This document shows positions 1,000 through 38,650 of a stretch of 64,000 bases of DNA, piece by piece. The stretch lies in the sequence record SRR31156797_1634. The stretch is one strand, 5' to 3'. The first letter of the stretch is position 1, and each line of letters starts with the position of its first letter. The position numbers and the translations under genes were made by a program. The notes beneath the pieces were generated by a model that made no database searches, was not told the origin of the DNA, and saw nothing but the letters and a program-made list of their open reading frames with translations.

Positions 1000-1005
1000 G
1001 AATAC

Positions 1006-1755: not shown

Positions 1756-1764
1756 GGAGAAGAT

Positions 1765-12877: not shown

Positions 12878-13969
12878 ATGTCTGGCAAAAAAGCTCTTAT
12901 TACCGGGATTACCGGTCAGGATGGTTCATATCTAGCTCGATTCCTTTTGGAAAAAGGGTATGAAGTTCACGGCATTAAACGCAGAGCATCTTCATTCAAC
13001 ACCCAACGCATCGATGACCTCTATCAAGACCCACACGAAAAACAGCGCCGCTTTTTTCTTCATTATGGTGATCTGACAGATTCCACCAACCTTATCCGTA
13101 TCATTCAGGAAGTACAGCCAGATGAAATTTACAATCTGGCGGCCCAGAGCCATGTCCATGTTTCCTTTGACAGCCCGGAATACACCGCAGACGTAACCGG
13201 AATAGGCACACTGCGCCTGCTTGAGGCCGTCCGGATTCTCGGACTTCAGGATAAAACCCGTTTTTATCAGGCCTCCACCTCTGAACTCTTCGGGCAGGTT
13301 CAGGAAACCCCGCAAAAAGAGACTACACCTTTCTATCCTCGCTCCCCATATGCCGTTGCCAAACTATACGGTTACTGGATCTGTGTGAACTACCGCGAAG
13401 CATACAACATGTATACCTGTAACGGGATTCTCTTTAACCATGAATCTCCAGTGCGTGGTGAGACCTTTGTAACCCGCAAGATTACCCGTGCGTTGGCCCG
13501 CATCAAACTGGGTATGCAGGACCGTCTTTATCTAGGAAATATGAACGCGAAACGCGACTGGGGACACGCAAAAGATTTTGTGCGCATGCAATGGCTCATG
13601 CTCCAACAGGAGACTCCGCAAGATTTCGTGATCGCCACAGGAGAACAACACTCTGTACGCGATTTTGTTGACGCTGCGGCAAAAGAAATGGGCATCGATA
13701 TAGAGTGGCGGGGTAAAGGAGAACAAGAGCAAGGCATAAACACCGAAAACGGCAAATGCATAGTAGCCGTTGACCCGCGCTACTACCGCCCTACCGAAGT
13801 AGAAACCCTTCTGGGCGATCCCTCCAAGGCCAAGAATGAATTGGGGTGGGAACCAGAAATAAGTTTCAAAGAACTAGTTCAAGAAATGGCCCGTGAAGAC
13901 CTGATAGAAGCCAGTCGTGAAGATCTTTGCCTCAAGCATGGTTTCGAAATTTTTCAGCCTCAGGAGTAA
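12878..13969 (+). CDS. gmd: GDP-mannose 4,6-dehydratase
   Basis: [56 protein letters not shown]. Confidence 0.97.
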
Positions 13970-23649: not shown

Positions 23650-24531
23650 TTGCCCTGCAATTCAAACACATATCCTCCCCTCTTCATAGCTGAAGTATCC
23701 AGCAATCATGGTTGTGATATTGACCGCTGCTATAAATTCATTGATACAGCAGCGCAAATCGGCTGCGGGGCAGCAAAGTTTCAGCTATTCAAAATAAATG
23801 AACTTTTTTCGCCAGAAATACTTACCCACAGCCAAGAACACCGCGATAGAAAGCGCTGGGAATTACCGGAATCCTTTATTCCGCTGATAGCCGAGCGCTG
23901 CCGGAAACAGGGCATAGCTTTTTCCTGCACCCCGTTCTATCTTAAGGCTGTTGATATCCTGACGCCACACGTGGACTTTTTTAAAATCTCCTCCTACGAA
24001 CTGCTCTGGACCGACCTGCTTAAAAAATGTGCCTCCAGCGGCAAGCCCCTGGTACTTTCCACCGGAATGGCAGATATGAGCGAAATAAACTCTGCTGTAA
24101 GCACCCTGCACAAAGCTGGTTGCGTTGACCTGACACTGCTGCACTGTGTATCAGGGTATCCCGCTCCGATTACGCAGGCGAATCTCGCAGCCATGCAGAC
24201 CATGAAAGATAAATTCCATTGCAAAATCGGCTGGTCTGACCATACAGTAAGCGAGGGCGTCATTCAGCGGGCAATCCATAGATATGACGCGCAGGTAATT
24301 GAACTGCATCTCGATCTTGATGAAACTGGGGACGAATACAAATTCGGACATTGCTGGCTGCCGGCACAGACTGAAAGGATGATCAAAAACATCCACGAAG
24401 GCTTGGCTGCTGATGGAGACGGAATCAAAAGTCCGGTGGAAGCGGAATTACCTGACCGCCAGTGGCGAGCCGATCCAGAGGACGGACTGCGTCCCTTGAA
24501 ATCAATCAGAAAAACATGGAAAACAAATTAA
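23650..24531 (+). CDS. N-acetylneuraminate-synthase-family (NeuB-like) protein, short form without SAF domain
   Basis: IAEVSSNH, KFQ, TPF, KISS, LSTGM, LHCVSGYP, GWSDHT, IELH; 293 aa. Confidence 0.88.
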   Translation: MPCNSNTYPPLFIAEVSSNHGCDIDRCYKFIDTAAQIGCGAAKFQLFKINELFSPEILTHSQEHRDRKRWELPESFIPLIAERCRKQGIAFSCTPFYLKAVDILTPHVDFFKISSYELLWTDLLKKCASSGKPLVLSTGMADMSEINSAVSTLHKAGCVDLTLLHCVSGYPAPITQANLAAMQTMKDKFHCKIGWSDHTVSEGVIQRAIHRYDAQVIELHLDLDETGDEYKFGHCWLPAQTERMIKNIHEGLAADGDGIKSPVEAELPDRQWRADPEDGLRPLKSIRKTWKTN

Positions 24532-26061
24532 ATGGCCAATGCAAACAGTAAGATAAAAAATCTTTCAGAACTTGCGGAGATCGCAAAGAAACTGCGCGAA
24601 GACGGCAAACGGATCGTGCTCTGCCACGGTGTCTTCGACCTGTTGCATATCGGACACATCCGCTATTTCAATCAAGCCAAGGAACACGGGGACGTGCTCA
24701 TGGTTACCCTGACCCCGGACCACTATGTAGACAAAGGTCCGGACCGTCCTGCATTTACCGAAATCCTCCGCGCGGAAGCCTTGGCCTCACTAGGTGAGAC
24801 CGATTACGTTGCCATCAATGAGTGGCCCACAGCCGAAAAAACCCTGCGCGCCATCCGCCCACACGTCTATGCCAAGGGAGATGAATTCAAAGACATCGAG
24901 AACGACCCGCTGGGTAAGATCGGCAAGGAAGCTGACGTAGTCCGTGAGATAGGAGCGGAGCTGGTCTTCACCTCTGACATCGTCTACAGCTCTTCCAACC
25001 TGATCAACCGCTACCTAAGCCGAAACAGCGAGGAGCTGGACGAATACTTGAAAATGTTTCGCAACCGTTACCAGTTGGACGATGTGCTCGACCATCTTGA
25101 ACGCATGCAAAACCTCAAGGTACTCATCATCGGAGACACCATCCTTGATGAATACCAAATAGCTTCCGCGCTAGGCAAATCATCCAAAGACCCCATTCTG
25201 GCCTTCAAATACCAATCTCACGAGCTTTATGCAGGTGGGGCACTGGCTGTAGCCAACCACGTAGCCAACTTCGCCGGGGAAGTTACCCTCTTAACCATGC
25301 TCGGAGAGAAGGAGCGCTACGAAGATTTCATCCACGAAAAACTGGATGCCAAAATCAAACCATACTTTTTTACCCGTCCCAATGGCCCGACGACTCTTAA
25401 ACGTAGGTTCGTTGACGGATATTCACTAAACAAGGTCATGGAATTCTACGTCATGGATGATAGCCCGCTACCGGATGATGTAGAACAACAAATCTGCACC
25501 GAGTTGGCCAAAATAATATCTGATCACGACCTCGTGCTGGCAGCCGACTTCGGGCACGGATTGATCAGTCCTGCAGTAGTGGATGTGCTGGTAAGTAAAT
25601 CTCCTTATCTTGCAGTGAACACACAAGCCAATGCCGGAAACCGGGGCTTCAATACCATTGGGAAATATCCACAAATGGATTTTTTCTCGCTGGCTGAGCA
25701 TGAACTACGCCTTGAAACCCGCGACCAAATCAATGAGTTACGCCCCTTACTTATCGAAACCGGAACAAAACTGAACACTAAAATTTGCCTGGTAACACAG
25801 GGGAGTCGGGGCTGTTCACTTTACAATCCGGCCAGCGAATTTGTACGTATCCCCACCTTCCAGTCCAATGTTGTGGACAGGGTAGGTGCCGGGGACGCAC
25901 TATTTTCCATTGCCGCCATGTCTGCCTGCATGGGGTTACATGAAGAACTGGTCGGATTCCTCGGCAATATTGCCGGATCTCTGGCCGTGCAAATCATGGG
26001 CAATGACCGGGCCATAGACAAAGAATCCACGCGCAAATACATAACCGCAACCATGAAATAA
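24532..26061 (+). CDS. Bifunctional cytidylyltransferase-like plus PfkB sugar kinase (HldE-like, reversed domain order)
   Basis: N-terminal HGVFDLLHIGH and YSSS; C-terminal IGDTILDEY, GGA..VANH, DFGHG, DRVGAGD. Confidence 0.88.
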   Translation: MANANSKIKNLSELAEIAKKLREDGKRIVLCHGVFDLLHIGHIRYFNQAKEHGDVLMVTLTPDHYVDKGPDRPAFTEILRAEALASLGETDYVAINEWPTAEKTLRAIRPHVYAKGDEFKDIENDPLGKIGKEADVVREIGAELVFTSDIVYSSSNLINRYLSRNSEELDEYLKMFRNRYQLDDVLDHLERMQNLKVLIIGDTILDEYQIASALGKSSKDPILAFKYQSHELYAGGALAVANHVANFAGEVTLLTMLGEKERYEDFIHEKLDAKIKPYFFTRPNGPTTLKRRFVDGYSLNKVMEFYVMDDSPLPDDVEQQICTELAKIISDHDLVLAADFGHGLISPAVVDVLVSKSPYLAVNTQANAGNRGFNTIGKYPQMDFFSLAEHELRLETRDQINELRPLLIETGTKLNTKICLVTQGSRGCSLYNPASEFVRIPTFQSNVVDRVGAGDALFSIAAMSACMGLHEELVGFLGNIAGSLAVQIMGNDRAIDKESTRKYITATMK

Positions 26062-26063
26062 AA

Positions 26064-27029
26064 ATGAGCAGCAAATACCGCCAATTTGATCGCAGCAGAC
26101 TGAAAATACTTCCCCTTGCAGAACGCAAAAGCCTGATTAATACCGGGATTATCAAAACGGTTCAGCCATGCACCGAAGTTCATCCATCCCTTGAGACTAT
26201 AGCCAAAGAATTAGCTGCAGCCAGAGACAGGAAATCTGCACGGATACTCATGATCGGGGCGCATGTAATTCGTTCCGGGGTTCAGCGCTACCTTTTCGAA
26301 CTTATGGAAAAAGGACTAATCAGCTGCATTGCAGTCAACGGAGCCTGTGCCATCCATGATTTTGAATTCGCTCTCCTTGGACAGACCACAGAATGCGTTG
26401 CCACCTACATTTCCAACGGACAATTCGGCCTCTGGCAGGAAACCGGACTGCTCAACGAAATCATTTCCAAGGGCAATACACAGGGACTTGGCTTCGGTGA
26501 AGCTGTGGGCAAATACATCTGTGAAAACCAACTACCCCATGCTGATATAAGCCTCTTTGCCAAAGCTTATGAACTGGGTATCCCCGTGACCGTACATGCC
26601 GGAATCGGTTACGATATCATCCATGAACATCCAAATTGCGACGGGGCCGCTATAGGGGAGGCCAGCTACCGCGACTTCCTTATTTTTGCCGACCAGCTTG
26701 AGCAGCTTGAGCAAGGTGTGGTCATGAATTTCGGCAGTGCCATCATGGCTCCGGAAATATATCTCAAGGCTCTGGCTATGGTTCGCAATGCGGCTGCAAA
26801 TTCCAACCCTGCAAAGACAATTCGAAATTTCACAACTTTAGTATGCGATTTGCAGGACCTACCCGAACAGGTAAAGAATGAAGCCCCCAAAAGTGATGCC
26901 CAGTACTATTTCAGACCATGGAAGACCATGCTGGTACGTACCGTGGCTGACGGGGGCAAAAGTTATTATGTCCGGGGATTTCACGCCCAGACGATTCCCC
27001 AGCTCTGGTCCGCTGCCGCAGAACTTTAA
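26064..27029 (+). CDS. Conserved hypothetical protein, deoxyhypusine-synthase-like fold (GSU2086-like)
   Basis: GAHVIRSG, NGA..IHDFE, GLGFGEAVG, PVTVH..IGYDIIH.H, GSAIMAPEIYLKAL. Confidence 0.6.
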   Translation: MSSKYRQFDRSRLKILPLAERKSLINTGIIKTVQPCTEVHPSLETIAKELAAARDRKSARILMIGAHVIRSGVQRYLFELMEKGLISCIAVNGACAIHDFEFALLGQTTECVATYISNGQFGLWQETGLLNEIISKGNTQGLGFGEAVGKYICENQLPHADISLFAKAYELGIPVTVHAGIGYDIIHEHPNCDGAAIGEASYRDFLIFADQLEQLEQGVVMNFGSAIMAPEIYLKALAMVRNAAANSNPAKTIRNFTTLVCDLQDLPEQVKNEAPKSDAQYYFRPWKTMLVRTVADGGKSYYVRGFHAQTIPQLWSAAAEL

Positions 27030-27045
27030 GCACCGAGGAAAGACT

Positions 27046-27612
27046 TTGTGGAATAAACACGCGCAAAAATTACAGAACTGCCTTAGCTCCATTGAAGTAA
27101 GTGGGATCGACTGCAGTACACACGGTTGTGATCAAGCTTTTTCTGTATGGAAAGATATGACCGAAAAACTTCGCAAGCAGGGTAATATAATCTACCTCAT
27201 CGGAAACGGAGCCAGTGCGTCCATGGCTAGCCACTTCTCTGCCGACCTTGCAAAAAATGCCCATGTGCATACGCAGGTTTTTACCGATCTGGCACTTATT
27301 ACCGCCCTTGCCAATGACATTTCATATGATCAGGTCTTTGTGGAACCACTGAGACGAAGATTAACATCAAACGACATGCTAGTTGCCATCAGCAGTTCCG
27401 GCAACTCCCCAAACGTACTCAATGCCTGTCGCTTTGCCGCAGAAACCGGAGCTTTAGTGGTCACTCTCAGTGCCATGTCTCCGGAAAACAGTCTGCGTTC
27501 AATCGGTGATCTCAATTTTTGGATACCCGCAGACACATACGGTATGGCTGAAACGGGCCACACCTGCATTCTCCACTACTGGATGGATTCTGTTTCCACT
27601 TCCCCGGCATAA
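27046..27612 (+). CDS. SIS-domain phosphosugar isomerase (GmhA-like)
   Basis: IGNGASASMASHF, TALAND, ISSSGNSPN, YGMAE..H; TTG start at 27046 after GAGGA. Confidence 0.85.
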   Translation: MWNKHAQKLQNCLSSIEVSGIDCSTHGCDQAFSVWKDMTEKLRKQGNIIYLIGNGASASMASHFSADLAKNAHVHTQVFTDLALITALANDISYDQVFVEPLRRRLTSNDMLVAISSSGNSPNVLNACRFAAETGALVVTLSAMSPENSLRSIGDLNFWIPADTYGMAETGHTCILHYWMDSVSTSPA

Positions 27613-27621
27613 GGATTTTTC

Positions 27622-28692
27622 ATGAACGATAATCTACGCATAGATTCCCACAAACTGCACCTGCACCCTAGCCGGGTTGCCAAATGGCTGGCAGGCGAAA
27701 ATATTGGCCCCATTTTTATGGAAGTCAGTCCCAGCGGGGCTTGTAACCACCGTTGCCGCTTCTGCGCCTACGATTTCACAAATTACGTACCCAAATATTT
27801 GGACCTTGAAATATACCGCCGGCGTATTCCCGGAATCGCAGCAACCGGAGTAAAAAGCATCATGTTTTCCGGTGAAGGCGAGCCGTTCATGAACAAAAAT
27901 TTAACTGAAATCTGTCTTGCCACCCTAGATGCTGGAATCGACGTGGGAATCACCACCAATGGCGCGCTCATGCAAGCTGAAAAACTGAGCCCTATGCTGG
28001 ATCGGCTCTCATGGATTAAAATCAGTTGTAACGGACTCAATCCCGGTAATTATGAATCAGTGCATCGTGGGCCTCAAGGCGACTTTGAAAAGGTCATGCG
28101 AAACATTGAAGATGCAGTCTCAATGCGCAATGCTAGCGAATCTAACTGTACTCTTGGTTTGCAGAGCCTCCTTTTACCAGAGAATGCGGGAGAGATGAAG
28201 GAACTGGCTATACACAGCCGTGAAATGGGTCTGGATTACATGGTAGTCAAACCATATTCCCAGCATCCGCTAGGAATAACCAAAGAATTTGAGGGCCTCA
28301 CTTATGAGGAATTCAAAGAACTTGGCCGGGAGTTACGTGGGCTTTCCACTCCTTCATTCACCGTAATTTTCCGAGATAAAGCTATGGACCGTTTGCAGGA
28401 CCAAGAACGCGGCTATGAGCGTTGTTACGCCATGCCCTTCTGGTCTTATATGGACGTGGACTGGAACATCTGGGGGTGCGGAATATACATAGGCGACGAG
28501 CGTTTTCATTATGGCAATCTCGCCGAACAAAGTTTCGAAGAACTTTGGTCCGGGAAAAAACGCATGCAATCCCTCGAATGGTGCAACAGCAAACTTGATC
28601 CATCCTCTTGCCGCGTCAACTGTCGCATGGACAAAGTCAACTCATACTTATGGGAACTGTGCAACCCCGGCGCACACGTTAATTTTATTTAG
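27622..28692 (+). CDS. Radical SAM enzyme with Twitch/SPASM domain
   Basis: CNHRCRFC, FSGEGEP, TTNG; C-terminal CYAMPF...WGC...YGNL...CRVNC. Confidence 0.88.
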   Translation: MNDNLRIDSHKLHLHPSRVAKWLAGENIGPIFMEVSPSGACNHRCRFCAYDFTNYVPKYLDLEIYRRRIPGIAATGVKSIMFSGEGEPFMNKNLTEICLATLDAGIDVGITTNGALMQAEKLSPMLDRLSWIKISCNGLNPGNYESVHRGPQGDFEKVMRNIEDAVSMRNASESNCTLGLQSLLLPENAGEMKELAIHSREMGLDYMVVKPYSQHPLGITKEFEGLTYEEFKELGRELRGLSTPSFTVIFRDKAMDRLQDQERGYERCYAMPFWSYMDVDWNIWGCGIYIGDERFHYGNLAEQSFEELWSGKKRMQSLEWCNSKLDPSSCRVNCRMDKVNSYLWELCNPGAHVNFI

Positions 28693-28706
28693 CAGAGGTA
28701 AAATCT

Positions 28707-29333
28707 GTGAGCGTTGGAATCGACCTCGACAATACTATAATCTGCTACGACAATTCCTTACATGGGATTGCCGTGGAACGAGGTTTAATTCCAAATGACC
28801 TACCTAGAATAAAAAGAATTATTCGAGACACAGTACGCGCAGCACACGGTGATATTGAATGGCAAAAACTACAAATAGCCATTTATGGGACTCACATGGA
28901 TCGTGCAGAATTAATGCCCGGAGTCTGGGAGTTTTTACTTAATTTAAAGGAACGCGGCATAAAGTTTCAAATCGTCAGCCACAAGACCCGCTACCCGAAC
29001 TACGGAGACAACAAAATTGATCTGCGCACAGCAGCACTGAATTTCCTACGCCAGCATAATTTCTTTGCTGAATCAGGATTGGGATTGACTGAAGGTGATG
29101 TTTTCTTCCTGTCCACAAGGGCGGAAAAAATTACGACCATTTGTAAATTAAAATGCTCCCTTTTCATCGATGATCTCAAAGAACTCTATCTCGAACAGGA
29201 TTTCCCGAAACTGAGTGCCAAGATACTTTTCTCTTCAGAACAAAATCTCGATATTTCCGGCGTGACCGTGCTGCCCGATTTTAATCAGATAGATAAATTC
29301 ATTTTTAAGGGGATTGCGGATGGTAAATTCTGA
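28707..29333 (+). CDS. HAD-superfamily phosphatase
   Basis: GIDLDNT motif I, VSHK, FIDD. Confidence 0.75.
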   Translation: MSVGIDLDNTIICYDNSLHGIAVERGLIPNDLPRIKRIIRDTVRAAHGDIEWQKLQIAIYGTHMDRAELMPGVWEFLLNLKERGIKFQIVSHKTRYPNYGDNKIDLRTAALNFLRQHNFFAESGLGLTEGDVFFLSTRAEKITTICKLKCSLFIDDLKELYLEQDFPKLSAKILFSSEQNLDISGVTVLPDFNQIDKFIFKGIADGKF

Positions 29334-30351
29334 CCCTAAAAGACTAATCTGCCGTCTGACCAAAGAGATTCCTGTCAAGTCTGAGCGCATCCGTGCCGGA
29401 CGCAACAGCCGAATTTATCGCGTTAATTGTGAGTCCGGAAAGACCCTGCTGACAAAATTTTACATTCAACCCACGGCTGACGGACGCAGCAGACTTGACC
29501 AGGAATGGACCGCCCTGAAGCTCATGACCGAATCAGGACTCAAGAACATCCCCCGTCCGCTGGAATTCGACGACCCTATTCAGGGAGCAATTTATTCTTT
29601 CATCCCCGGGAATCCTGTTAATGAGACAACAAATCAAGACATTCTGGAAGTTGTCTCATTTCTCGCCAAGCTCAAAGAAATTTCCAGTCTACCGACAGCA
29701 ATAAAACTGCCCCGCGCTGCCGAAGCCTGTTTTTCGCCCACAGAACTGGTGGAAAATATCAGACAGAGGCTTAAAAAATTACAAGCTCTACCCGCAAAAG
29801 ACGAAATCTATCAGCGCATGCATTCATTCCTTGAAAACAGATTCTCTACTGAACTTGAAAGGTGCGCAGACAATGCAAAACAGCATTTCCCCGCTGAATT
29901 ATGGACTGAACCGCTCCCACAGAGGCAGAGAACTCTCAGTCCATCCGATTTTGGGTTCCACAATGCGCTGCGCACTGAAGACGGACTCGCTTTTGTGGAT
30001 TTTGAATATTTCGGCTGGGATGATCCGGTAAAAGCAACTTCGGATTTTTTGCTTCATCCGGCAATGGATTTGCGTACAAGCCAGATAAAATATTTCTTTG
30101 CGGGTATGAAAGAAATTTTTATAAATGATACAAATTTCACCACCCGTTTCAAAATATACCTGCCCCTGTTTCGCTTAAAGTGGTGCATGATCCTGCTAAA
30201 CGAATTTATAAACCACCATCTTGAACGACGGGAATTCGCCAGCGGAGGCGTCGGCTGGCGAGAGGGCCTGCGCGCGCAGCAGCTTGAAAAGACTCAGAAT
30301 TTCCTTAATAAGGATCAAAAGATACTAACCGCACTGAATTTGCGGAATTAA
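29320..30351 (+). CDS. APH/choline-kinase-family phosphotransferase
   Basis: GRNSRIY, SPSDFGFHNAL, FVDFEYFGWDDP. Confidence 0.8.
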   Translation: MVNSDPKRLICRLTKEIPVKSERIRAGRNSRIYRVNCESGKTLLTKFYIQPTADGRSRLDQEWTALKLMTESGLKNIPRPLEFDDPIQGAIYSFIPGNPVNETTNQDILEVVSFLAKLKEISSLPTAIKLPRAAEACFSPTELVENIRQRLKKLQALPAKDEIYQRMHSFLENRFSTELERCADNAKQHFPAELWTEPLPQRQRTLSPSDFGFHNALRTEDGLAFVDFEYFGWDDPVKATSDFLLHPAMDLRTSQIKYFFAGMKEIFINDTNFTTRFKIYLPLFRLKWCMILLNEFINHHLERREFASGGVGWREGLRAQQLEKTQNFLNKDQKILTALNLRN

Positions 30352-30367
30352 TATATCGGAGAAAAAA

Positions 30368-31174
30368 TTGGACCAGCGCTCTAAACAGCTCAGAAAAAAA
30401 ATAGTGGATGTCCTCCACCATGCCGGACGCGGTCATATCGGACCATCAATGTCCTTGGTGGAAATGCTACGCGTGCTTTATGATTCGGTTTTGAAATATG
30501 ATCCCGCCAATCCACAATGGGCGCAGCGGGACCGTTTCATCCTCAGCAAAGGACACGGCTGTCTTGCCCTTTACGTGTTGCTGGCTGAAAAAGGATTCAT
30601 CAGTGAGCAAGAACTGCTCAGCTTCTGCTCCTTTGACGGTTTGCTGGGCGGTCATCCTACAACCAAAACTCCGGGAGTGGAATTCGCTACCGGAAGTCTC
30701 GGACATGGTTTATCTCTCGCTGTGGGCGTTGCCTCCGCGCTTAAAATCGACAAATCGGAAAGCCGTATTTTAACAGTTCTAGGTGATGGTGAATGTGGAG
30801 AAGGTTCGGTATGGGAAGCGGCCATGAGCGCATCCCGCCAGAAACTATCCAACCTGACCGCTATTGTAGATTACAACAAACTGCAATCCTACGGTCCCAC
30901 TGAAGAAATTTCCGGGCTGGAACCTTTTGCCGACAAATGGAAAAGTTTCGGTTTTGCTGTACGCGAAGTGGACGGACACGATGTAACCGCGCTGGGACAA
31001 ACATTCGCAGAACTTCCCTTTGCCGAAGGCAAACCGTCAGCCATCATCTGCCACACAGTCAAAGGCAAGGGCATCCCCTTTGCCGAAGGCAATCCCAACT
31101 GGCACCACAAAACAAAAATGTCCGATGAAGACCACGCCCGGATGATCAAAAGCATTGAGGATTACCATGCGTAA
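30368..31174 (+). CDS. Transketolase, N-terminal subunit, pair 2
   Basis: GHIGPSMS, DRFILSKGH, GSLGHG, GDGE...DYN; TTG start. Confidence 0.92.
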   Translation: MDQRSKQLRKKIVDVLHHAGRGHIGPSMSLVEMLRVLYDSVLKYDPANPQWAQRDRFILSKGHGCLALYVLLAEKGFISEQELLSFCSFDGLLGGHPTTKTPGVEFATGSLGHGLSLAVGVASALKIDKSESRILTVLGDGECGEGSVWEAAMSASRQKLSNLTAIVDYNKLQSYGPTEEISGLEPFADKWKSFGFAVREVDGHDVTALGQTFAELPFAEGKPSAIICHTVKGKGIPFAEGNPNWHHKTKMSDEDHARMIKSIEDYHA

Positions 31175-32087
31175 AGCTTGTCTGGAACAGGTCTATCAAC
31201 TGGCAAAAAGAGATGAGCGGGTAGTCTTCGTAGGCTCCGACCTTGGCGCGGGCACCCTCTCACATTTTCAGGATGAAATGCCTGAACGTTTTTTCATGGA
31301 AGGGATTGCCGAAGCACACGCTGTAGGCATGGCCTGCGGTCTGGCTCACGAAGGCAAGGTAGTTTACGTGAACACCATCCAGAGTTTCCTGACCCGGCGC
31401 TGCTACGAACAACTTTTGCTTGATGCCTGTTTGCACAATTTAAATGTACGCTTCATCGGCAACGGCGGAGGTCTGGTCTATGCCCCGCTCGGCCCCACCC
31501 ACTGGGCCACCGAAGATATTTCCATCCTGCGGGTTATTCCCAACTTGACCGTGCTTTCCCCGGCGGATGCAAAAGAAATGGACCGGATCATGCCCCACAC
31601 CTTAGACCATCAAGGACCGATTTTTATCCGCCTTGCCAAAGGCTACGACCCCATCGTCACCGAAGAAAAATATTTTGAAATCGGCAAAGCTTATCCGTAC
31701 CGTGAAGGCAAAGATGTGCTGCTCATTGGTTGCGGGGTCATGCTGGGCATCATAAAACAAGCCGGAGAACTGCTGAAAGAAGCTGGAATCGAAGCATCCA
31801 TACTGCATCTGCCGACCATCAAACCGTTGGACAATGAAGCAATAATTTCACGGGCACGGGAAACACGGGCGGTCATAACCGTGGAAGAGAACACCACTCT
31901 CGGCGGACTTGGCAGCGCAGTGGCGGAAATCCTCGCAGAAGCATGCCTGCCCAATCCTCTGCGCATGAAACGGATTGGCTTACCGGACTCATTCAGCGAA
32001 AATTACGGTTCACAGCTCCAACACTTCGCTCATAACGGCCTGACAGCTGAAAACATATTTATAGAAGCCCGCAAATTACTCATTTAG
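31167..32087 (+). CDS. Transketolase, C-terminal subunit, pair 2
   Basis: SDLGAG, GIAEAH, LGPTHW, EEN..GGLG; ATG 31167 after GAGG. Confidence 0.92.
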   Translation: MRKACLEQVYQLAKRDERVVFVGSDLGAGTLSHFQDEMPERFFMEGIAEAHAVGMACGLAHEGKVVYVNTIQSFLTRRCYEQLLLDACLHNLNVRFIGNGGGLVYAPLGPTHWATEDISILRVIPNLTVLSPADAKEMDRIMPHTLDHQGPIFIRLAKGYDPIVTEEKYFEIGKAYPYREGKDVLLIGCGVMLGIIKQAGELLKEAGIEASILHLPTIKPLDNEAIISRARETRAVITVEENTTLGGLGSAVAEILAEACLPNPLRMKRIGLPDSFSENYGSQLQHFAHNGLTAENIFIEARKLLI

Positions 32088-32092
32088 AAGTT

Positions 32093-32722
32093 TTGCCAAA
32101 TACAATGATAAGACTATCACCGCACATGGCATACAACCTGAAGAAGGACCCTAAACGGCTGGCATTCGTGCTGGCCCGCTACTCCTTTGCGGCCCAGATA
32201 ACCGCGGACTGCGCCAGTATCCTTGAACTGGGCTGTAGCGAAGGTATAGGAGCTTCCATGCTCCACGGAGGCACCAAAACATATCTCGGCCTCGATCTAG
32301 ACACCCCGGCCATTGAAGCGGCCCAGCGCAATTTTGGAAACGAGAAGGTGCGCTTTGAAAATGAAAATTTCCTGCACATGGATGAGGGCAAATTCGAAGC
32401 TGTGGTCAGCCTTGATGTGATCGAACATATTTCAAAAGGCGAAGATGAAGCGGCATTCTTCAATGCAGTGCGCGATAACATCACCGAGAACGGAGTCTGC
32501 GTCATCGGCACCCCGAACATTACCAGCACCCCCTATGCCTCACCGGAAAGTATACGCGGTCACGTAAATATGTTTGATGCCACACGGCTTAAATCCACTA
32601 TGGAGCAGCATTTCAGCAACGTGTTCATATTTTCCATGAACGACGAAGTTATTCATACCGGCTATCATCCCATGGCTCATTATCTGTTCGCCGTAGGTTG
32701 CAACAAAATCATCGAGAAATAG
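32093..32722 (+). CDS. Class I SAM-dependent methyltransferase
   Basis: LELGCSEGIG, LDVIEH, IGTPN. Confidence 0.82.
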   Translation: MPNTMIRLSPHMAYNLKKDPKRLAFVLARYSFAAQITADCASILELGCSEGIGASMLHGGTKTYLGLDLDTPAIEAAQRNFGNEKVRFENENFLHMDEGKFEAVVSLDVIEHISKGEDEAAFFNAVRDNITENGVCVIGTPNITSTPYASPESIRGHVNMFDATRLKSTMEQHFSNVFIFSMNDEVIHTGYHPMAHYLFAVGCNKIIEK

Positions 32723-32724
32723 TC

Positions 32725-33330
32725 ATGATAAATACTACAGAAAATCCAGAAAAACACTGGAAAAAAATGATCGATGAATTCGGGGACGAGCATGCTCCAC
32801 TAACTCCAAAATTGGCACAGTCATTTGCAAGTGATCCTTATGGCTTAATGGAACAGATTTCATGGTTCAAGTTCGCAGGCAAGATGATCAGCAAAAATCA
32901 ACGCGTACTGGTCTATGATCATCTGGAAGGACTGGGAGGCTGGACCGTAGCTTGTGAAACAGGTCCGGTGGTCGCAGTTCTTGAGGAGCTCGATCCAGTG
33001 GATGAAATCCGCTCTGCATGGCCTGATGATAAAATCATATTTGAAAAACATGATGAGATCCTGCGCTCCGCAAAAGACGAATTTGATGGTCTGGTCCGCT
33101 TTGATCCACATGGCAATATGAACGAAACGCAGTGGGAATCCTTTATTGCAGATAGCGCAAAAATACTGCGCGAAAGTGGTGTTCTCATTGCTGGAAGCAA
33201 AAATGACAAAGAATTCACTTTCATAAAAGCAGCGGCCAAAAAACATTTCAACCACGTTTTCTGTTTCGGTAAGGGACACCCTCATCCACTCATCACCCCG
33301 GCAAATGCAACCATCATTTTGGCCTGTTAA
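32725..33330 (+). CDS. Degenerate methyltransferase-like protein (paralog of upstream gene)
   Basis: DP..L.....F.FA, EGLG, G..I.G, HF.HVF.F align with the 32093 protein; SAM glycine loop altered. Confidence 0.55.
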   Translation: MINTTENPEKHWKKMIDEFGDEHAPLTPKLAQSFASDPYGLMEQISWFKFAGKMISKNQRVLVYDHLEGLGGWTVACETGPVVAVLEELDPVDEIRSAWPDDKIIFEKHDEILRSAKDEFDGLVRFDPHGNMNETQWESFIADSAKILRESGVLIAGSKNDKEFTFIKAAAKKHFNHVFCFGKGHPHPLITPANATIILAC

Positions 33331-33342
33331 GAGGATATCTGT

Positions 33343-34002
33343 ATGAGAAATCTACTAAATCTGGTCACTCCACTGCACACTTCCACTAAACGCGAATATC
33401 TGCCGCGTATGGTTGATGAGAAAGTAGAGTGTATGCTCAAAGCCAAGGAATATGAATTCGATTACTGGGATGGTGACCGCCGCTTTGGATACGGGGGCTA
33501 CCATTATCTTGCAGGCTACTGGACCCCGGTAGCTGAAAACCTGATCGAGACTTACAGACTTGAAAAGGGAGCACGAATTTTGGACGTGGGCTGCGGCAAG
33601 GCTTTCCTGCTTTATGAACTGCATAAGCTGGGTATGGAAGTACACGGCTTTGATATTTCCCGACACGGACTTGAGTGCGCAAAGGATGAAATCAAAGAAA
33701 ACCTGTTCATCCAACGAGCCGAAGAGCCTTTCCCTTATGCTGAGGGCGAATTTGATCTGGTTATCTCCATCAATTCACTGCACAATTTACCCGTATTCAA
33801 TCTCAAGAAAACACTTAACGAAATGGAACGGGTAGGCCGCAATAAATATCTTTGCGTAGAAAGCTTCCGAAATGAACAGGAATTGTTTAACCTCCAATGC
33901 TGGGCCCTGACCTGTGAGTCTTTTTTTAGTAAAGAAGAATGGGAATGGCTTTTCAACGAATTTAACTATTCCGGTGACTACGAATTTATCTACTTCGAAT
34001 AA
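33343..34002 (+). CDS. Class I SAM-dependent methyltransferase (YWDGDRR.GYGGY family)
   Basis: LDVGCGKAF, SINSLHNL, WALTC. Confidence 0.85.
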   Translation: MRNLLNLVTPLHTSTKREYLPRMVDEKVECMLKAKEYEFDYWDGDRRFGYGGYHYLAGYWTPVAENLIETYRLEKGARILDVGCGKAFLLYELHKLGMEVHGFDISRHGLECAKDEIKENLFIQRAEEPFPYAEGEFDLVISINSLHNLPVFNLKKTLNEMERVGRNKYLCVESFRNEQELFNLQCWALTCESFFSKEEWEWLFNEFNYSGDYEFIYFE

Positions 34003-34014
34003 ACGAGGGACGAC

Positions 34015-35082
34015 ATGCAGCTATACACCAACCTTAAAATTTTCCATTACCAGCACAAACTAGACTCACTGCCCCCGGAATCGGAGCAGACTGAAGCGCC
34101 CCTGCACATCCGTATTAAACCTACCAATGCCTGCAACCACAGTTGTACTTACTGCGCCTACCGCAATCCCAACCTGCAACTGGGGCAGGACATGGCCATT
34201 GCTGACCGCATTCCGGCTGCGAAAATGAAAGAAATTGTCAACGACTGCATTGAAATGGGTGTAAAAGCGGTAACTTTCAGCGGCGGAGGCGAACCGCTCT
34301 GCTACCCGCAACTTGCAACTTCTGCCCGCACTTTAGCCGAGGACGGAGTCAGCATCGCCACCCTGACCAATGGCGGTCTGCTGCACGGTGAAGTCGCTGA
34401 AGTTTTTTCCTCCATGGGCACATGGATCAGGATTTCCATGGATGGCTGGGACGGGCCAAGTTATGCTCGTTTTCGTTCCGTGGATAATGATGAATTTTCC
34501 AAGATCATGACCAACATTGAAAATTTCAAAAAACTGGGCGGTAATTGTTTTCTGGGCGTGAGCTATGTGATCAACCGCGACAATGCCGAACATGTTTTTG
34601 CCATGGCTCGTCAGCTTAAAGACGCAGGAGTGGACAGCATCAAATTCTCTGCCTGCGTGGTCAGCAATGACGGACATGAAAACAACCGCTACCACGCACC
34701 CGTATTCGGCAGAATCAAAGAACAAACCCAACGCGCCGTAAGCGAACTCCAAGACAACGGATTCGAAGTCTTTGATGCCTATCACGAACTGGATGAAAAA
34801 TTCTCCAAATCCTATGAGTGGTGCCCGTATCAACAGATACTCCCGGTAATTGGGGCGGATCAGCGTGTCTACTCCTGTCAGGATAAGGCCTACAATCTTG
34901 ATTGCGGTGTTCTTGGCTCCATCAAGGACGTGCGCTTCAAGGATTTCTGGTTCAATAATCGCGATAAATTCTTCAAGATCAATCCCGCAGAACATTGCAA
35001 CCACCATTGCGTTTCCAATGGCAAGAACATGCTGGTTCACGATTACCTGAATGCCAATCCAGACCATCTACCCTTTGTTTAA
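34015..35082 (+). CDS. Radical SAM enzyme with Twitch/SPASM domain
   Basis: CNHSCTYC, FSGGGEP, LTNG; C-terminal CPYQQ...YSC...LGSI...CNHHC. Confidence 0.88.
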   Translation: MQLYTNLKIFHYQHKLDSLPPESEQTEAPLHIRIKPTNACNHSCTYCAYRNPNLQLGQDMAIADRIPAAKMKEIVNDCIEMGVKAVTFSGGGEPLCYPQLATSARTLAEDGVSIATLTNGGLLHGEVAEVFSSMGTWIRISMDGWDGPSYARFRSVDNDEFSKIMTNIENFKKLGGNCFLGVSYVINRDNAEHVFAMARQLKDAGVDSIKFSACVVSNDGHENNRYHAPVFGRIKEQTQRAVSELQDNGFEVFDAYHELDEKFSKSYEWCPYQQILPVIGADQRVYSCQDKAYNLDCGVLGSIKDVRFKDFWFNNRDKFFKINPAEHCNHHCVSNGKNMLVHDYLNANPDHLPFV

Positions 35083-35097
35083 CGGGTGCAAGACTCC

Positions 35098-37038
35098 ATG
35101 AAAATTTTGGTTATCGGAGACGGTGCGCTGGGCAAGGCAATCGCGCAGCAAATAAAAAAACGCGGACACAAAATATCACAGACTTCGCGCAAGAATTCGC
35201 AACTTATTCCTTTAGAATTGAAAAATGAACACGAGTTCACCAATCTTCCAAGCGCGAATTGGGCTGTTATTGCCGCAGGAATTTCCGGTTACAAAGAATG
35301 TGCTGATTACCCTGAATCGCGAGAGATTAATGTAGACCGCACAATTGAACTCTGCCGGTTTCTGCTCAGCCGGGGAACCAAAATTCTATTCCCTTCCAGC
35401 ACAGCTGTCTTTGACGGAGAAAAAAAATTTCCAAGACCAAACACTCTCACCTGCCCTGCTACGGAATATGGTCGCCAGAAAGCAGAAGTGGAAAATTTTC
35501 TAGGTCAGTACCCTGATCAGACCGCCATCGTGCGTCTGACCAAACTTCTGGATCACAACACACTGCTCGTTGCCGGCTGGTTGAAAAATCTCGCTGCCGG
35601 ACAAGAAATCACTCCATTCAAAGACCTGACCATCGCCCCTGTGCTCTTTGAAGATGCGGCCTTTGCCTGCTGTAAGATCATGGAAAATGGTAATAGCGGG
35701 ATATTTCATTGTTCAAGCCCACAAGAAATCAACTACCTTGAATTCGGACGGATGCTCTGCGAGCAATCAGGGTTTGATTCCGAACTTATCAAGCCTGCCA
35801 GCTGCAAAGGATTTCTTGACTACTGCCCAGTTCATTGCGGCCTTGATTCAAGTTCCACCGAACAACTAATCCAATTCAAATTTCCCGATCCAGAGCAGGT
35901 CATCGCAAAACTGCTGCAACCCCGCTGCCTGCTCTGCGGAAGTCTCAATCTGTATCACTTTGATAAATTTAAAGATTTTCCAGGGATAACTTCGGACTGC
36001 AAGCCATGGCCGCGTTCCGGGGAGTTCATGCTCTGCAGGGAATGCGGGCACCCTCAGAAAAGACTTTCCGCGCAATGGTTCAAGGACATCAACGAAATCT
36101 ATTCCGGGTATGAGATGTATCCCTTAAGCTCGGGCAATGAGCCACTCATCTTTGATGAAAAGGGTGAAGGCTGTCCACGTAGTGGTGTTCTGCTAGGCAA
36201 ACTCATTCCTGCACTTTCTCTACCCGAAGAAGGAAACGTGCTGGATGTGGGCTGCGGCAACGGGAGCCTGCTGCAACAGTTTCATCTACGCCGCCCCGGA
36301 TGGAAGTTATACGGACATGAGCAATCGGCCCAACGTGAAGAAATTCTGCATCTTCCCGGAGTTCATGGTTTCTATTCCGGACCGCTATCAAATATTGATC
36401 GCAAATTCGACCTGATCACCATGACCTACGTCATTGAGCACCTGACTGATCCGCTGGACGTGCTCAAGCAACTTACCGGACTGCTCCGCGAGGGCGGACG
36501 AATCATGGTCCATACCTCATCTTTTGAGGACAATCCATTTGACCTCATGGTCTGTGATCACTGTTCTCACTTCACCCCGGGAACACTGCAATTTCTGGCA
36601 GCAGAGGCCGGACTTAAAATAACCGGGCGTACCGATCCATGGCTGGCTAAAGAAATCGGCTTCATCGCCCTCAAAGGTCCACACCAGCATACCCCGGCCC
36701 GAATTACCAAAAATCTGCAAAGCATGACAGACTCACTCAGTTGGCTGGATCAACTAGCCTGCAAAACACAGCAGGCCAGCGTAAAACAAGAAGTGGGAAT
36801 CTTCGGCACTGCCGTAGCGGGGACATGGCTGGCGGCCTCCCTTGAAAAGACATCCTTTTATGTTGATGAAGACCCGTCCAGACAAGGCCAGACTCACATG
36901 AGTTTGCCTATCATCGGCCCTGCTCAAGTTCCGCAGGGAGCGGCGGTAATCATGGGATTCAACAAAGAATTGGGAACACGTATTGCCGAGCGACTGAATG
37001 GTTGCTATCCCCAAATAAATTTCATTATCCCGGACTGA
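35098..37038 (+). CDS. RmlD-like NDP-sugar reductase fused to Zn-binding C-methyltransferase-like module
   Basis: IGDGALG, SSTAVFDG, YGRQK; CLLC...CREC; LDVGCGNG, VIEH; IFGT..AG...YVDED; GTG 35086 is an alternative start. Confidence 0.75.
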   Translation: MKILVIGDGALGKAIAQQIKKRGHKISQTSRKNSQLIPLELKNEHEFTNLPSANWAVIAAGISGYKECADYPESREINVDRTIELCRFLLSRGTKILFPSSTAVFDGEKKFPRPNTLTCPATEYGRQKAEVENFLGQYPDQTAIVRLTKLLDHNTLLVAGWLKNLAAGQEITPFKDLTIAPVLFEDAAFACCKIMENGNSGIFHCSSPQEINYLEFGRMLCEQSGFDSELIKPASCKGFLDYCPVHCGLDSSSTEQLIQFKFPDPEQVIAKLLQPRCLLCGSLNLYHFDKFKDFPGITSDCKPWPRSGEFMLCRECGHPQKRLSAQWFKDINEIYSGYEMYPLSSGNEPLIFDEKGEGCPRSGVLLGKLIPALSLPEEGNVLDVGCGNGSLLQQFHLRRPGWKLYGHEQSAQREEILHLPGVHGFYSGPLSNIDRKFDLITMTYVIEHLTDPLDVLKQLTGLLREGGRIMVHTSSFEDNPFDLMVCDHCSHFTPGTLQFLAAEAGLKITGRTDPWLAKEIGFIALKGPHQHTPARITKNLQSMTDSLSWLDQLACKTQQASVKQEVGIFGTAVAGTWLAASLEKTSFYVDEDPSRQGQTHMSLPIIGPAQVPQGAAVIMGFNKELGTRIAERLNGCYPQINFIIPD

Positions 37039-37063
37039 TACCTCCCACTTACAAGGAATACTT

Positions 37064-38650
37064 ATGAGCACTGACACTCTTTTAGATAATACAACCCCAT
37101 TTACGGTAAATGGGAAGAACACCATGCAGCACGCCTATAACTCCGCTGACATGGACGCTTTTCCCTGCGAAAAATTTACACTGGGTAAAGAGCAACGAAC
37201 AAAAGAAAAAATATTCTTCCACTGTAATATGGTCGTTTTCGGGGATGAATATACGTCTACCTTTGTAAAAGATGTGCTGCCCACCCAACTCGGACCGGAT
37301 AATATTGAGGCCCTCAATTCAGAAGCTCGTTCGATATACGTTTTCTACACCACCCCCGAAGATCTCCCAACCATAAAGGAATCCCCCGCCTTTGCAGAGC
37401 TTGCCCAAATCATGGACATACGAATTCATATCATTGATTATGAGCACATAAGCAGTGCTAACAAATACAATTTCATGATTCAAAGTCATAAGCACTCCAT
37501 TCGCAAGGCACATGAGGAAGGAGCCAGAGCTTTGTTTCTTGCTCCTGATCTAATATTTCCGAAATGCGCATTCCGCAACTTATACCGCAGAACAGCTGAA
37601 GGGCATAAGGCGATTATGATCGGGACCATGAGAGTGACCAAAGAAGAATTCCTGCCGAAAATGCATGAACTATTCTTTGCTGATAACGATATAGCAGCCC
37701 CTATTGCGGCCCGTGCTTTGGTAGATTTAGTTATTGATAATTTACATCCCGACACCCGCAACTCAATCATAGGATCATCAAGAAGCACTGGATGGCCATC
37801 ACAATTGTTATGGGAAATTCCCGGTGAAGGTATTCTTGCACGAAATTTTCACCTGCAGCCAATCATGGTTTACCCAGTAGAACTCAACGAATTTAACGGA
37901 ACAGTGGATGACGATTGCGTCCGCAAAATATGCAAAAACATTGAAGACGTTTACATCACCCATGATTCTGACGAAATAGCCGCTTTCGACCTCAGTAAAA
38001 AGGATATCAGAACCATTGAACAGGATAAGCCTTTCAACATTGAGTACGCCGCAGCATGGGCGGATGACCATGCAGATGAATTTCACCGCCAGTTTGTGGA
38101 ACATGAAATCCGCTTCCATAACGGTAAATCCGGCCCGCTGTGGACTAAACTTTCAGAAAACGCAGCTGAAGTGGTGGACGCAATTAAAAACCACTCGCCC
38201 AGTGAAGAAGAACACTTCTTTCCTAAAGTTTTGCTGGATTACGATCTGCGCTTTCCTCCTCTTAAAATCGATTCGCCCTGCATTAATAACAATATTGAAC
38301 AGAAAGAACCGGACACAAGAATTACGCCGCCCCACTTAGAAGAAACAAAAACTGACATCCCCGGTCCGGAGGAAACCCGGTTCTGCCTGTCGCCATGGAA
38401 CTCCCCTCATGTCACGCCCTGCGGGGATGTGTATTCCTGCCGCATACGCCAAGAAGTTATGAGCCGAACAGATGAGAACACATCGCTCAGAAAGGCCATG
38501 CACAGTGCATCATTTACTGAACTGCGCAAGCAGCTTATCACTGGAAACATCAAAGACCCCGCCTGCCGAAACTGTCCCATCGCTCCCGTTCGCCCATTAC
38601 GCGATTTGAAACGCTCAATAGCTGATATGATCCGCGCCAGCATAAAATAA
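37064..38650 (+). CDS. Hypothetical protein (possible GT-A-like domain) with C-terminal SPASM-like domain
   Basis: VVFGDEY, LAPDLIF; C-terminal CLSPW...GDVYSC...CRNC; no CxxxCxxC. Confidence 0.55.
   Translation: MSTDTLLDNTTPFTVNGKNTMQHAYNSADMDAFPCEKFTLGKEQRTKEKIFFHCNMVVFGDEYTSTFVKDVLPTQLGPDNIEALNSEARSIYVFYTTPEDLPTIKESPAFAELAQIMDIRIHIIDYEHISSANKYNFMIQSHKHSIRKAHEEGARALFLAPDLIFPKCAFRNLYRRTAEGHKAIMIGTMRVTKEEFLPKMHELFFADNDIAAPIAARALVDLVIDNLHPDTRNSIIGSSRSTGWPSQLLWEIPGEGILARNFHLQPIMVYPVELNEFNGTVDDDCVRKICKNIEDVYITHDSDEIAAFDLSKKDIRTIEQDKPFNIEYAAAWADDHADEFHRQFVEHEIRFHNGKSGPLWTKLSENAAEVVDAIKNHSPSEEEHFFPKVLLDYDLRFPPLKIDSPCINNNIEQKEPDTRITPPHLEETKTDIPGPEETRFCLSPWNSPHVTPCGDVYSCRIRQEVMSRTDENTSLRKAMHSASFTELRKQLITGNIKDPACRNCPIAPVRPLRDLKRSIADMIRASIK

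Follow-up and report, generated by a model that had tools for sequence, protein, structure and literature searches.

The 64,000-nucleotide stretch of sequence record SRR31156797_1634 analysed in this study (the window) carries at positions 35098..37038 an open reading frame (ORF) that joins a domain of the short-chain dehydrogenase/reductase (SDR) class to a methyltransferase module with the domain order of nucleoside diphosphate (NDP)-sugar C-methyltransferases. Translation from the ATG at 35098 yields a protein of 646 amino acids that begins with MKILVIGDG, and both this start and this length agree with those of full-length homologues (646-648 amino acids). An alternative GTG start at 35086 would give a product of 650 amino acids (35086..37038). 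The stop codon of an upstream radical S-adenosylmethionine (SAM) gene lies 15 nucleotides 5′ of the ATG, and the next gene begins 25 nucleotides past the stop of the fused ORF. Such tight spacing on both sides indicates that the ORF sits in an operon-like block. All features given with window coordinates are encoded on the plus strand.

Domains and conserved residues of the fused protein

The N-terminal portion (residues 1-273; 35098..35916) is assigned by Pfam model PF04321 (RmlD_sub_bind) as an RmlD-like short SDR domain. Its translation includes the glycine-rich NAD(P)-binding motif GDGALG (residues 7-12; 35116..35133), and an alignment of relatives (A5) locates the catalytic residues at S100/S101 and at Y124-G-R-Q-K128 (YGRQK, residues 124-128; 35395..35481 for the whole set). 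Next in the chain is a four-cysteine zinc-ribbon region, recognised by conserved cysteines in the arrangement C277-x2-C280 (CLLC) and C313-x2-C316 (CREC; 35926..36045). A class I SAM-dependent methyltransferase core occupies approximately residues 350-530 (36145..36687), as judged from a Pfam Methyltransf_23 match to residues 368-508 (E 6.7e-20), and includes SAM motif I, VLDVGCGNG (residues 381-389; 36238-36264), the pair E447-H448 (36436..36441) and the segment D487-H488-C-S-H491-F492 (36556..36573). The chain ends with an alpha/beta (Rossmann-like) domain at approximately residues 533-646 (36694..37035), as delimited by two AlphaFold models and by VIA-align. The motifs and domains listed in an earlier note on this DNA, namely GDGALG, YGRQK, CLLC, CREC, a SAM domain and the C-terminal alpha/beta domain, are therefore all present in the translation or in the models.

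The methyltransferase module, defined as the C-terminal 377 residues, was modelled with AlphaFold from a 27-sequence alignment (A1), yielding a predicted local distance difference test score (pLDDT) of 92.3 and a predicted template modelling score (pTM) of 0.90. When this model was compared with the Protein Data Bank (PDB) by Foldseek, the matches shown to rank 18 were all MtmC, KijD1 or TcaB9 (E 7.8e-19 to 1.7e-15; template modelling score TMq 0.65-0.69 over ~425 columns), and generic methyltransferases came next at TMq ~0.35. VIA-align gave Z scores of 23.8-25.9 to the same three proteins, with 336-349 of the 377 residues aligned at a root-mean-square deviation (rmsd) of 4.0-4.3. The aligned span matches model residues 3-377 with chain residues 8-410 (the C-terminal end falling at 408-410), whereas the next rows (Z ≤ 19.1) cover only the methyltransferase core of ~200 residues. 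This correspondence over the whole length indicates that all three domains resemble those of NDP-sugar C3-methyltransferases. Indeed, C3-methyltransferases of the TcaB9/KijD1/MtmC/TylC3 type (PDB 3ndi/4e2x, 5t64 and 4rv9; PF08421 plus PF08484) have the same order of a Cys4 zinc domain, a class I SAM domain and a C-terminal alpha/beta domain.

Sequence profiles point in the same direction. A profile of the whole module built from A1 retrieves MtmC (E 6.1e-8) and TcaB9 (E 1.4e-4) from PDB sequences in colinear alignments, among many generic methyltransferases. A bridge was found by searching five genomes that hold related loci with PF08484. The 409-amino-acid protein recovered from one of these loci (L082; 59.1 bits, above the cut-off) matches MtmC (5.2e-16), KijD1 (3e-14) and TcaB9 (1.1e-11), and hhalign aligns A1 with it at a probability of 97.7% (E 1.8e-12) over 338 columns, from the first CxxC through the C-terminal domain. 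Six other candidates for this role (from L047, L050, L051, L053, L064 and L071) were dropped as plain Methyltransf_23 proteins without PF08421 or PF08484. The zinc ribbon, SAM domain and C-terminal domain recognised in the earlier note can thus be restated as distant homology to TcaB9, MtmC and KijD1 over the whole length of the module, as evident from Foldseek, VIA-align and hhalign together.

The C-terminal domain of TcaB9-type enzymes holds the NDP-sugar, which in TcaB9 is a dTDP-sugar. In PDB sequences, a profile of this domain from the present family (A4) faintly resembles 3nkl (E 0.021), whose 141-residue chain bears the title UDP-D-quinovosamine 4-dehydrogenase; the two share the pattern GxFG...W/L...F(V/I)D(E/D)D...G. 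Judged from sequence, this likeness is no more than a hint of a nucleotide-binding role.

Conservation was assessed with A5, which has 43 rows and supports counts out of 30 sequences for the SDR domain and out of 24-27 for the methyltransferase module. Residues E447, H448, D487, H488, H491 and F492 are invariant (24/24), motif I (DVGCGNG) is invariant or nearly so, and invariant residues of the C-terminal domain are G567, F569, G570, W577, D590 and R632. The four cysteines C277, C280, C313 and C316, which are predicted to bind zinc, are conserved in 24 of 24-27 sequences, and the structural alignment to MtmC and TcaB9 starts at module residue 3-6. In the methyltransferase core, the segment VCD(487)H(488)CSH(491)F aligns with YYEHCSYF of the L082 protein (within EHCSYFTPGTL), with YHEH of MtmC and with YDEH of KijD1. 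Two invariants are specific to the family, as both the sequence TSDCKPWP (residues 298-305, between the CxxC pairs) and His491 are absent from the L082 protein, MtmC and KijD1.

In TcaB9 of Micromonospora chalcea, His225 is the catalytic base. TcaB9 numbering was inferred from KijD1, whose chain is equally long and aligns over identical ranges, by subtracting 2 from the KijD1 index. This yields Tyr76, His181, Tyr222, Glu224 and His225, which are precisely the residues named in the titles of TcaB9 mutant structures. By this scheme His181 corresponds to His448 and His225 to His488, both conserved, and Glu224 corresponds to Asp487, a conservative change that is itself invariant. When TcaB9 chains were scored against a family profile (A2), the wild type gave 21.1 bits, as did Y76F, whose substitution lies outside the profile, while Y222F gave 21.7 bits and E224Q 20.5 bits. 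The scores for H181N (15.8 bits, a loss of 5.3), H225N (15.4 bits, a loss of 5.7) and H181N/E224Q (15.2 bits) are lower, and the losses with H181N and H225N indicate that both TcaB9 histidines align with invariant histidines of the family.

The reductase half is matched by PF04321 at E 2.9e-22 (79.5 bits versus a cut-off of 27), with residues 1-273 covering positions 1-282 of the 287 in the profile. Its best PDB sequence matches are RmlD proteins (1vl0, E 1.7e-11). In a full-length AlphaFold model built from A5 (pLDDT 93.7, pTM 0.87), the scores are in keeping with two halves packed in a fixed arrangement. Foldseek returned MAT2B and RmlD structures as the best matches of the N-terminal half, including 1vl0 (template modelling score TMt 0.83-0.84, rmsd 2.8 over 280 columns, 25% identity), with further fold matches to 2ggs, GacA (4wpg), 8ctr and 1kbz. 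No PDB chain spanning both halves was present in the Foldseek results obtained with the full-length model. Residues S100, S/T101, Y124 and K128 are each present in 30/30 sequences of A5, and the counterpart of S101 in RmlD 1vl0 is the Thr of 'STDYVFDG'. In the glycine motif, G7 is found in 30/30 sequences, G9 in 26 with Ser in the other 4, and G12 in 29/30. The family PF04321, the matches to 1vl0 in sequence and in Foldseek, and the intact S/T-Y-K triad all support the reading of the N-terminal half as an RmlD-like SDR, which had been proposed from the sequence.

Fused and split relatives

A word-indexed homologue search returned 32 proteins at E ≤ 0.001 among 8000 candidates scored. Nine are full-length fused homologues of 646-648 amino acids (68-76% identity, 100% coverage), found in Maridesulfovibrio/Desulfovibrio-type assemblies and in one record with the label Marinifilum sp. 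JC120. Another 19 are stand-alone proteins of 372-404 amino acids that cover the C-terminal 55-59% of the query at 35-64% identity, and the remaining 4 matches are weak. When the whole fused protein was searched exhaustively with HMMER against 1.84 billion cluster representatives, 898 representatives were found at E ≤ 1e-30, a number to which plain SDRs and methyltransferases drawn by the two-part query also contribute. Among the best 150, which were examined, 7 are SDR-methyltransferase fusions (P0002, P0034, P0035, P0038, P0040, P0057 and P0075), and Pfam finds PF04321 together with a methyltransferase domain in all six new fused representatives (31-34% identity). The RmlD domain was not found by Pfam in two other long proteins, P0055 and P0160; the former (758 amino acids) has an unassigned N-terminal region of 378 residues preceding the methyltransferase module.

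A 699-amino-acid fusion is also encoded in a locus from a Planctomycetia metagenome-assembled genome (MAG; L030). A quick IQ-TREE tree was made from 57 methyltransferase-module sequences, comprising 10 fused Maridesulfovibrio-type proteins, the L030 fusion, 19 stand-alone proteins and 27 ORFs from related loci, with other loci left out. The fused clade of the window (SH-aLRT 99) is nested among split-gene relatives (P0011-P0014 and L001) and the L030 fusion falls in a distant clade, so that on this tree the fusion requires two origins or more. In the nearest split relative, that of Maridesulfovibrio sp. FT414 (L001), the reductase gene ends 5 nucleotides before the methyltransferase gene, and this gap shows the route by which the fusion arose.

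With neighbouring genes only 5 nucleotides apart, one assembly or frameshift error could in principle join them, and the earlier note had named a sequencing artefact as a way in which its interpretation might fail. However, the same uninterrupted frame and length recur in nine homologues from separate assemblies, the catalytic and structural motifs are all intact, and confidence is high along the whole of both models, pLDDT falling below 50 over no stretch of the full-length one. When the six distant fused representatives are also considered, an artefactual or decaying gene becomes hardly credible, and the fusion can be accepted as genuine.

Other arrangements of the module were noted. In an Opitutaceae MAG the methyltransferase module is partnered by a family 2 glycosyltransferase domain (L011:1857-3788, +). 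A 708-amino-acid ORF of another locus (L044:8606-10732, +) joins an SDR homologue (residues 173-439) to a methyltransferase module that has no stretch matching module residues ~155-315, the catalytic motifs included, and this ORF may be a decayed fusion or reflect an assembly gap.

Where the two halves are encoded separately, their genes tend to be neighbours. Of 600 pattern matches in a scan of genome contigs, 289 were confirmed as relatives. The analysis retained the best 80 loci, 42 of which hold a full-length relative of the methyltransferase module (E < 1e-40). These loci reach at most ±10 kb and many of the contigs are cut. Within these limits the SDR is fused or adjacent to the methyltransferase in 25/42 loci: it is fused in 1, immediately upstream in 20, where stop and start codons often overlap, and immediately downstream in 4. 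An SDR homologue lies elsewhere within the locus in 7/42 and was not found in 10/42, two of which are contigs under 3.3 kb. Constant pairing and repeated fusion are what would be predicted if a keto-dependent C-methylation were followed by a ketoreduction. The proposal that one polypeptide carries out two steps is thus reinforced both by gene-pair conservation (25/42) and by recurrent fusion (7 of the best 150 representatives).

Other systems provide points of comparison. NovS is a separate NDP-hexose 4-ketoreductase of a deoxysugar pathway. RmlD itself (dTDP-4-dehydrorhamnose reductase; PF04321, TIGR01214; 1vl0 and 1kbz) has the same short SDR fold, S/T-Y-K triad and glycine-rich motif, whereas the SDR examined here has a GDGxxG motif, a methyltransferase partner and a score far under the equivalog cut-off. 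TcaB9, KijD1 and MtmC differ in that their relatives considered here are found in glycan clusters of Desulfovibrionaceae, Planctomycetota, Verrucomicrobiota, Acidobacteriota, Pseudomonadota and others rather than in actinomycete antibiotic clusters, and in that the present methyltransferase module is covalently joined to a reductase.

MtmC and CmmC, of mithramycin and chromomycin biosynthesis, are described as a 'bifunctional 4-ketoreductase and 3-C-methyltransferase' acting on an NDP-4-keto sugar (PMC10269268). According to that source, the activity of MtmC is set by the bound cofactor, either SAM or NADPH, so that the two reactions are alternatives on the same substrate, and a separate reductase, MtmTIII, reduces the methylated product of MtmC. 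C3-methylation followed by 4-ketoreduction, as with MtmC and then MtmTIII, is there the standard order in mycarose-type pathways (PMC10269268). MtmC therefore resembles the fused protein in having both activities in one polypeptide, and it is also the best structural match of the methyltransferase module. However, MtmC is without an SDR domain, and because a complete RmlD-like SDR domain is fused to the present module, methylation and reduction can run in series, unlike in MtmC.

A C-methyl-branched sugar in a Gram-negative surface glycan is exemplified by virenose, a 6-deoxy-3-C-methyl sugar of Coxiella lipopolysaccharide (LPS). A route proposed in silico leads from GDP-mannose or TDP-glucose to a 4-keto-6-deoxy intermediate, then to methylation and reduction (PMC3539893). 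This route has separate enzymes, and no fusion and no transketolase or heptose-type genes appear in its outline. A literature search, whose coverage left subscription journals mostly outside, found no account of the present subfamily or of a covalent fusion of an SDR to a C-methyltransferase.

Companion genes and competing explanations

The fused gene is preceded by a cassette (24532..34002) that encodes HldE-like, GSU2086-family, GmhA-like SIS, radical SAM, weakly HAD-like and APH-type kinase proteins, a split transketolase, and two small methyltransferases (MT1 and MT2) plus a degenerate copy. Many of these genes recur with the methyltransferase module in the 42 loci. An SDR is found in 32, MT2 in 31, the C half of the transketolase (TKC) in 24, MT1 in 23, the N half (TKN) in 21, the APH-type kinase and the HAD-like gene (208-amino-acid product) in 14 each, the HldE-like gene in 10 and the GmhA-like gene in 5. 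The cassette also occurs in loci L001, L004, L016, L021, L028, L030, L033, L037, L043 and others, and is spread over multiple phyla; some of its relatives add a methyltransferase of ~390 amino acids, a zinc-dependent alcohol dehydrogenase and a B12-radical SAM gene. No description of this transketolase cassette was found in the literature. Among 14 small or neighbouring ORFs that were scanned, no cupin was identified.

These conserved companions point to a dedicated pathway in which a heptose-type or higher sugar is activated and methylated several times, rather than to one based on GDP-6-deoxymannose. A transketolase in the company of an isomerase, a kinase, a phosphatase and a nucleotidyltransferase recalls the octose route of lincosamide biosynthesis, and the product of the cassette might be an NDP-heptose or an NDP-octose. 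The earlier note had instead suggested as substrate the GDP-4-keto-6-deoxymannose made by Gmd in the same island. A GDP-mannose 4,6-dehydratase gene is indeed present (12878-13969; PF16363, E 7.8e-162) and is followed by one for a GDP-fucose-synthase-like SDR. However, it lies 21 kb upstream of the fusion in another gene block, with glycosyltransferase genes and oppositely oriented manB/manC genes in between, and a true Gmd (at least 300 bits) accompanies the methyltransferase module in only 2/42 loci. This substrate is therefore not favoured.

The source of the keto group is a related question. Extended SDRs scoring at least 50 bits to the Gmd of the window are found in 11/42 loci; of the two that were scanned with NCBIfam, that of L033 is dTDP-glucose 4,6-dehydratase-like (2.3e-61), and that of L004 is closest to GalE (9.3e-57) and then to dTDP-glucose 4,6-dehydratase (3.7e-48). 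For the window, the candidates are the adjacent radical SAM enzymes, one of which (rSAM1) has a faint likeness to DesII, the distant Gmd, or the SDR domain itself.

In our view the fused protein is a bifunctional NDP-ketosugar C-methyltransferase/ketoreductase, to which we assign a probability of about 60%, and its probable product is a methyl-branched sugar used in a glycan of the cell surface. We infer from the homology and gene context described above that methylation occurs on carbon rather than oxygen, and likewise the order of steps, the methylated position and the substrate. In the proposed mechanism, the C-terminal module would take a proton from the carbon adjacent to the keto group of an NDP-ketosugar, and this carbon would receive the methyl group of SAM. 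His488, backed by Asp487, would serve as the base, with His448 and Tyr338 nearby. The N-terminal RmlD-like SDR (S101/Y124/K128, GDGALG) would then reduce the keto group with NAD(P)H, giving a C-methyl-branched sugar nucleotide destined for a surface glycan. The substrate would most likely be an NDP-heptose or a related higher sugar supplied through the HldE-like and GmhA-like genes of the cassette. Its keto group would be introduced by a dehydratase-like SDR in relatives and possibly by the adjacent radical SAM enzyme here.

Several observations weigh against this interpretation. Neither PF08421 nor PF08484 matches the fused protein at E ≤ 1 in Pfam, and neither was found at E ≤ 0.01 in 10 related proteins scanned. 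Both are also absent from the precomputed Pfam domains of all 32 homologue matches. These nulls set the proteins apart as a separate, unnamed subfamily, so that the regular C-methyltransferase family membership implied by the earlier note must be given up. Identity to solved C-methyltransferases is 11-16%. A profile of the zinc ribbon alone (A3) found no C-methyltransferase in PDB sequences and gave one chance match, and the C-terminal profile A4 likewise found none there; consequently, it is the fold and the hhalign bridge that support homology of the zinc and C-terminal domains. The earlier note had made its assignment depend on the catalytic residues of C-methyltransferases. On this point, invariant residues occupy the positions of His181, Glu224 (here Asp) and His225, while Tyr222 is replaced by Val485. 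The counterpart of Tyr76 is probably the invariant Tyr338, a tentative match given the alignment gaps beside it. The reductase scores 55.8 bits with the NCBIfam rmlD equivalog (TIGR01214), far under its cut-off of 224.05, and is thus an RmlD-like ketoreductase-type SDR and not an RmlD orthologue. No 4,6-dehydratase-type SDR was found in the sub-cluster of the window that includes the fusion. Finally, no subfamily member carries a functional name in the sources consulted, where the names seen are 'sugar nucleotide-binding protein', 'class I SAM-dependent methyltransferase' and the like.

Some of these observations would be accommodated if the module methylated a heteroatom (O or N), or a carbon in another chemical setting, with the SDR carrying out a reduction or epimerisation that is mechanistically unlinked and the pair merely sharing a pathway. 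The missing Pfam matches, the low identity, the loss of Tyr222 and the presence of invariant motifs of its own (TSDCKPWP and His491) are all consistent with such a divergence in function, and the other methyltransferases in which the cassette is rich imply that heavy O-methylation occurs anyway. Yet all solved proteins with the three-domain fold are sugar C3-methyltransferases, and the His/acid pair and second His targeted in the TcaB9 mutant structures are invariant. Furthermore, tight pairing and repeated fusion with a ketoreductase-type SDR are predicted by keto-dependent C-methylation but not by O-methylation, and for these reasons we consider this alternative unlikely. The substrate might otherwise be a ketose phosphate or branch ketone produced by the split transketolase, instead of a nucleotide sugar, with the module methylating beside the ketone and the SDR reducing it. 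The split transketolase is among the most constant companions (TKN 21/42, TKC 24/42), in comparison to the rarity of true Gmd, and no 4,6-dehydratase was found in the sub-cluster of the window. We nevertheless find this doubtful, given that the C-terminal domain, which in TcaB9 holds the dTDP-sugar, is kept and highly conserved, and has a faint likeness (E 0.02) to the nucleotide-sugar enzyme domain 3nkl. In addition, RmlD-type SDRs act on NDP-sugars, and the cassettes include HldE-like nucleotidyltransferase or other NTP-transferase genes.

A further alternative dispenses with any dehydratase or oxidase. The SDR would oxidise a hydroxyl to a ketone, the methyltransferase would methylate the neighbouring carbon, and the same SDR would return the hydride, making the branching redox-neutral overall. 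In its favour, the sub-clusters of the window and of L001 each have a single sugar-type SDR, namely the fused or paired one, and the two halves are packed confidently in the full-length model (pTM 0.87). On the other hand, NAD(P)H is a dissociable co-substrate of RmlD-type enzymes, for which no oxidising activity is known, the 11/42 loci with an extended SDR related to Gmd include the dehydratase-like or GalE-like examples of L033 and L004, and the radical SAM genes beside the pair offer another source of a ketone. We therefore give this alternative only a slim chance. In its boldest form, for which the odds are likewise long, a self-contained reaction that borrows and returns the hydride would branch a non-deoxy NDP-heptose or NDP-octose without a dehydratase, and would be the signature step by which a widespread cassette, with its split transketolase, HldE-like and GmhA-like genes and 3-4 methyltransferases, makes a heavily methylated sugar of higher carbon number across at least seven phyla.

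Regardless of the exact substrate, the proteins described here form an unnamed, widespread C-methyltransferase-like subfamily that is habitually paired with its reductase and that in the window is fused to it. Most C-methyl-branched sugars known come from actinomycete antibiotics, with a few odd examples in LPS, and their methyltransferases have been recognised through two Pfam models. The present subfamily is missed by both PF08421 and PF08484, yet has the same fold and catalytic core, and across many environmental phyla its members are located in surface-glycan clusters, where a dedicated RmlD-like reductase nearly always accompanies them. If the chemistry proposed for the bifunctional C-methyltransferase/ketoreductase is correct, then branched sugars in bacterial glycans would be far commoner than annotated, and the fused protein would constitute a compact two-step catalyst for glyco-engineering. 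Likewise, a new sugar pathway would be marked by the companion genes, namely those for the split transketolase, for heptose-type activation and for extra methyltransferases. Fusion of consecutive pathway enzymes is common, and thus no principle is overturned by this arrangement.

Other genes of the island

The fusion is the penultimate gene of a co-directional block (23650-38650) that ends with a SPASM-domain protein. The gene directly upstream (34015..35082) encodes a radical SAM enzyme (PF04055, E 8.6e-21), and orthologues of this enzyme are located directly 5′ of the pair or of the methyltransferase gene in L001, L037 and L002, and 6 kb away in L012. The downstream gene (37064..38650) encodes a 528-amino-acid protein in which nothing is recognisable except a SPASM/twitch-like cysteine domain at the C-terminal end (residues ~440-505). 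Family scans did not find a radical SAM core in this protein, and gave no assignment to its N-terminal 430 residues. Its relatives in L001 and L009 are ~875 amino acids long.

At the other end of the block is a gene (23650-24531) for a truncated NeuB-like protein of 293 amino acids, which matches the NeuB TIM-barrel and scores far below the NeuB/PseI equivalog cut-offs. No second domain was reported for this protein, no homologue was found in the best 80 related loci, and accordingly NeuB is counted as a companion in 0/42. The adjacent HldE-like bifunctional protein (24532-26061) has a reversed domain order, with an adenylyl/cytidylyltransferase domain at residues 17-160 followed by a PfkB heptose-7-phosphate-kinase-like domain at residues 189-494, and scores well below the HldE cut-offs.

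Near the distal end of the cassette, the small methyltransferase gene MT1 (32093-32722) is overlapped at its end by 25 nucleotides of a 210-amino-acid ORF (32698-33330). This ORF gives no Pfam or NCBIfam match and retrieves by phmmer, more weakly, the same ORFs as MT1. It is probably a degenerate MT1 paralogue. A separate set of genes at the start of the window (85-3524) encodes a Methyltransf_23 protein and a classical SDR (adh_short) together with another split transketolase pair (1765-2595 and 2595-3524). Due to this second pair at 1765-3524, the island has two split transketolases.

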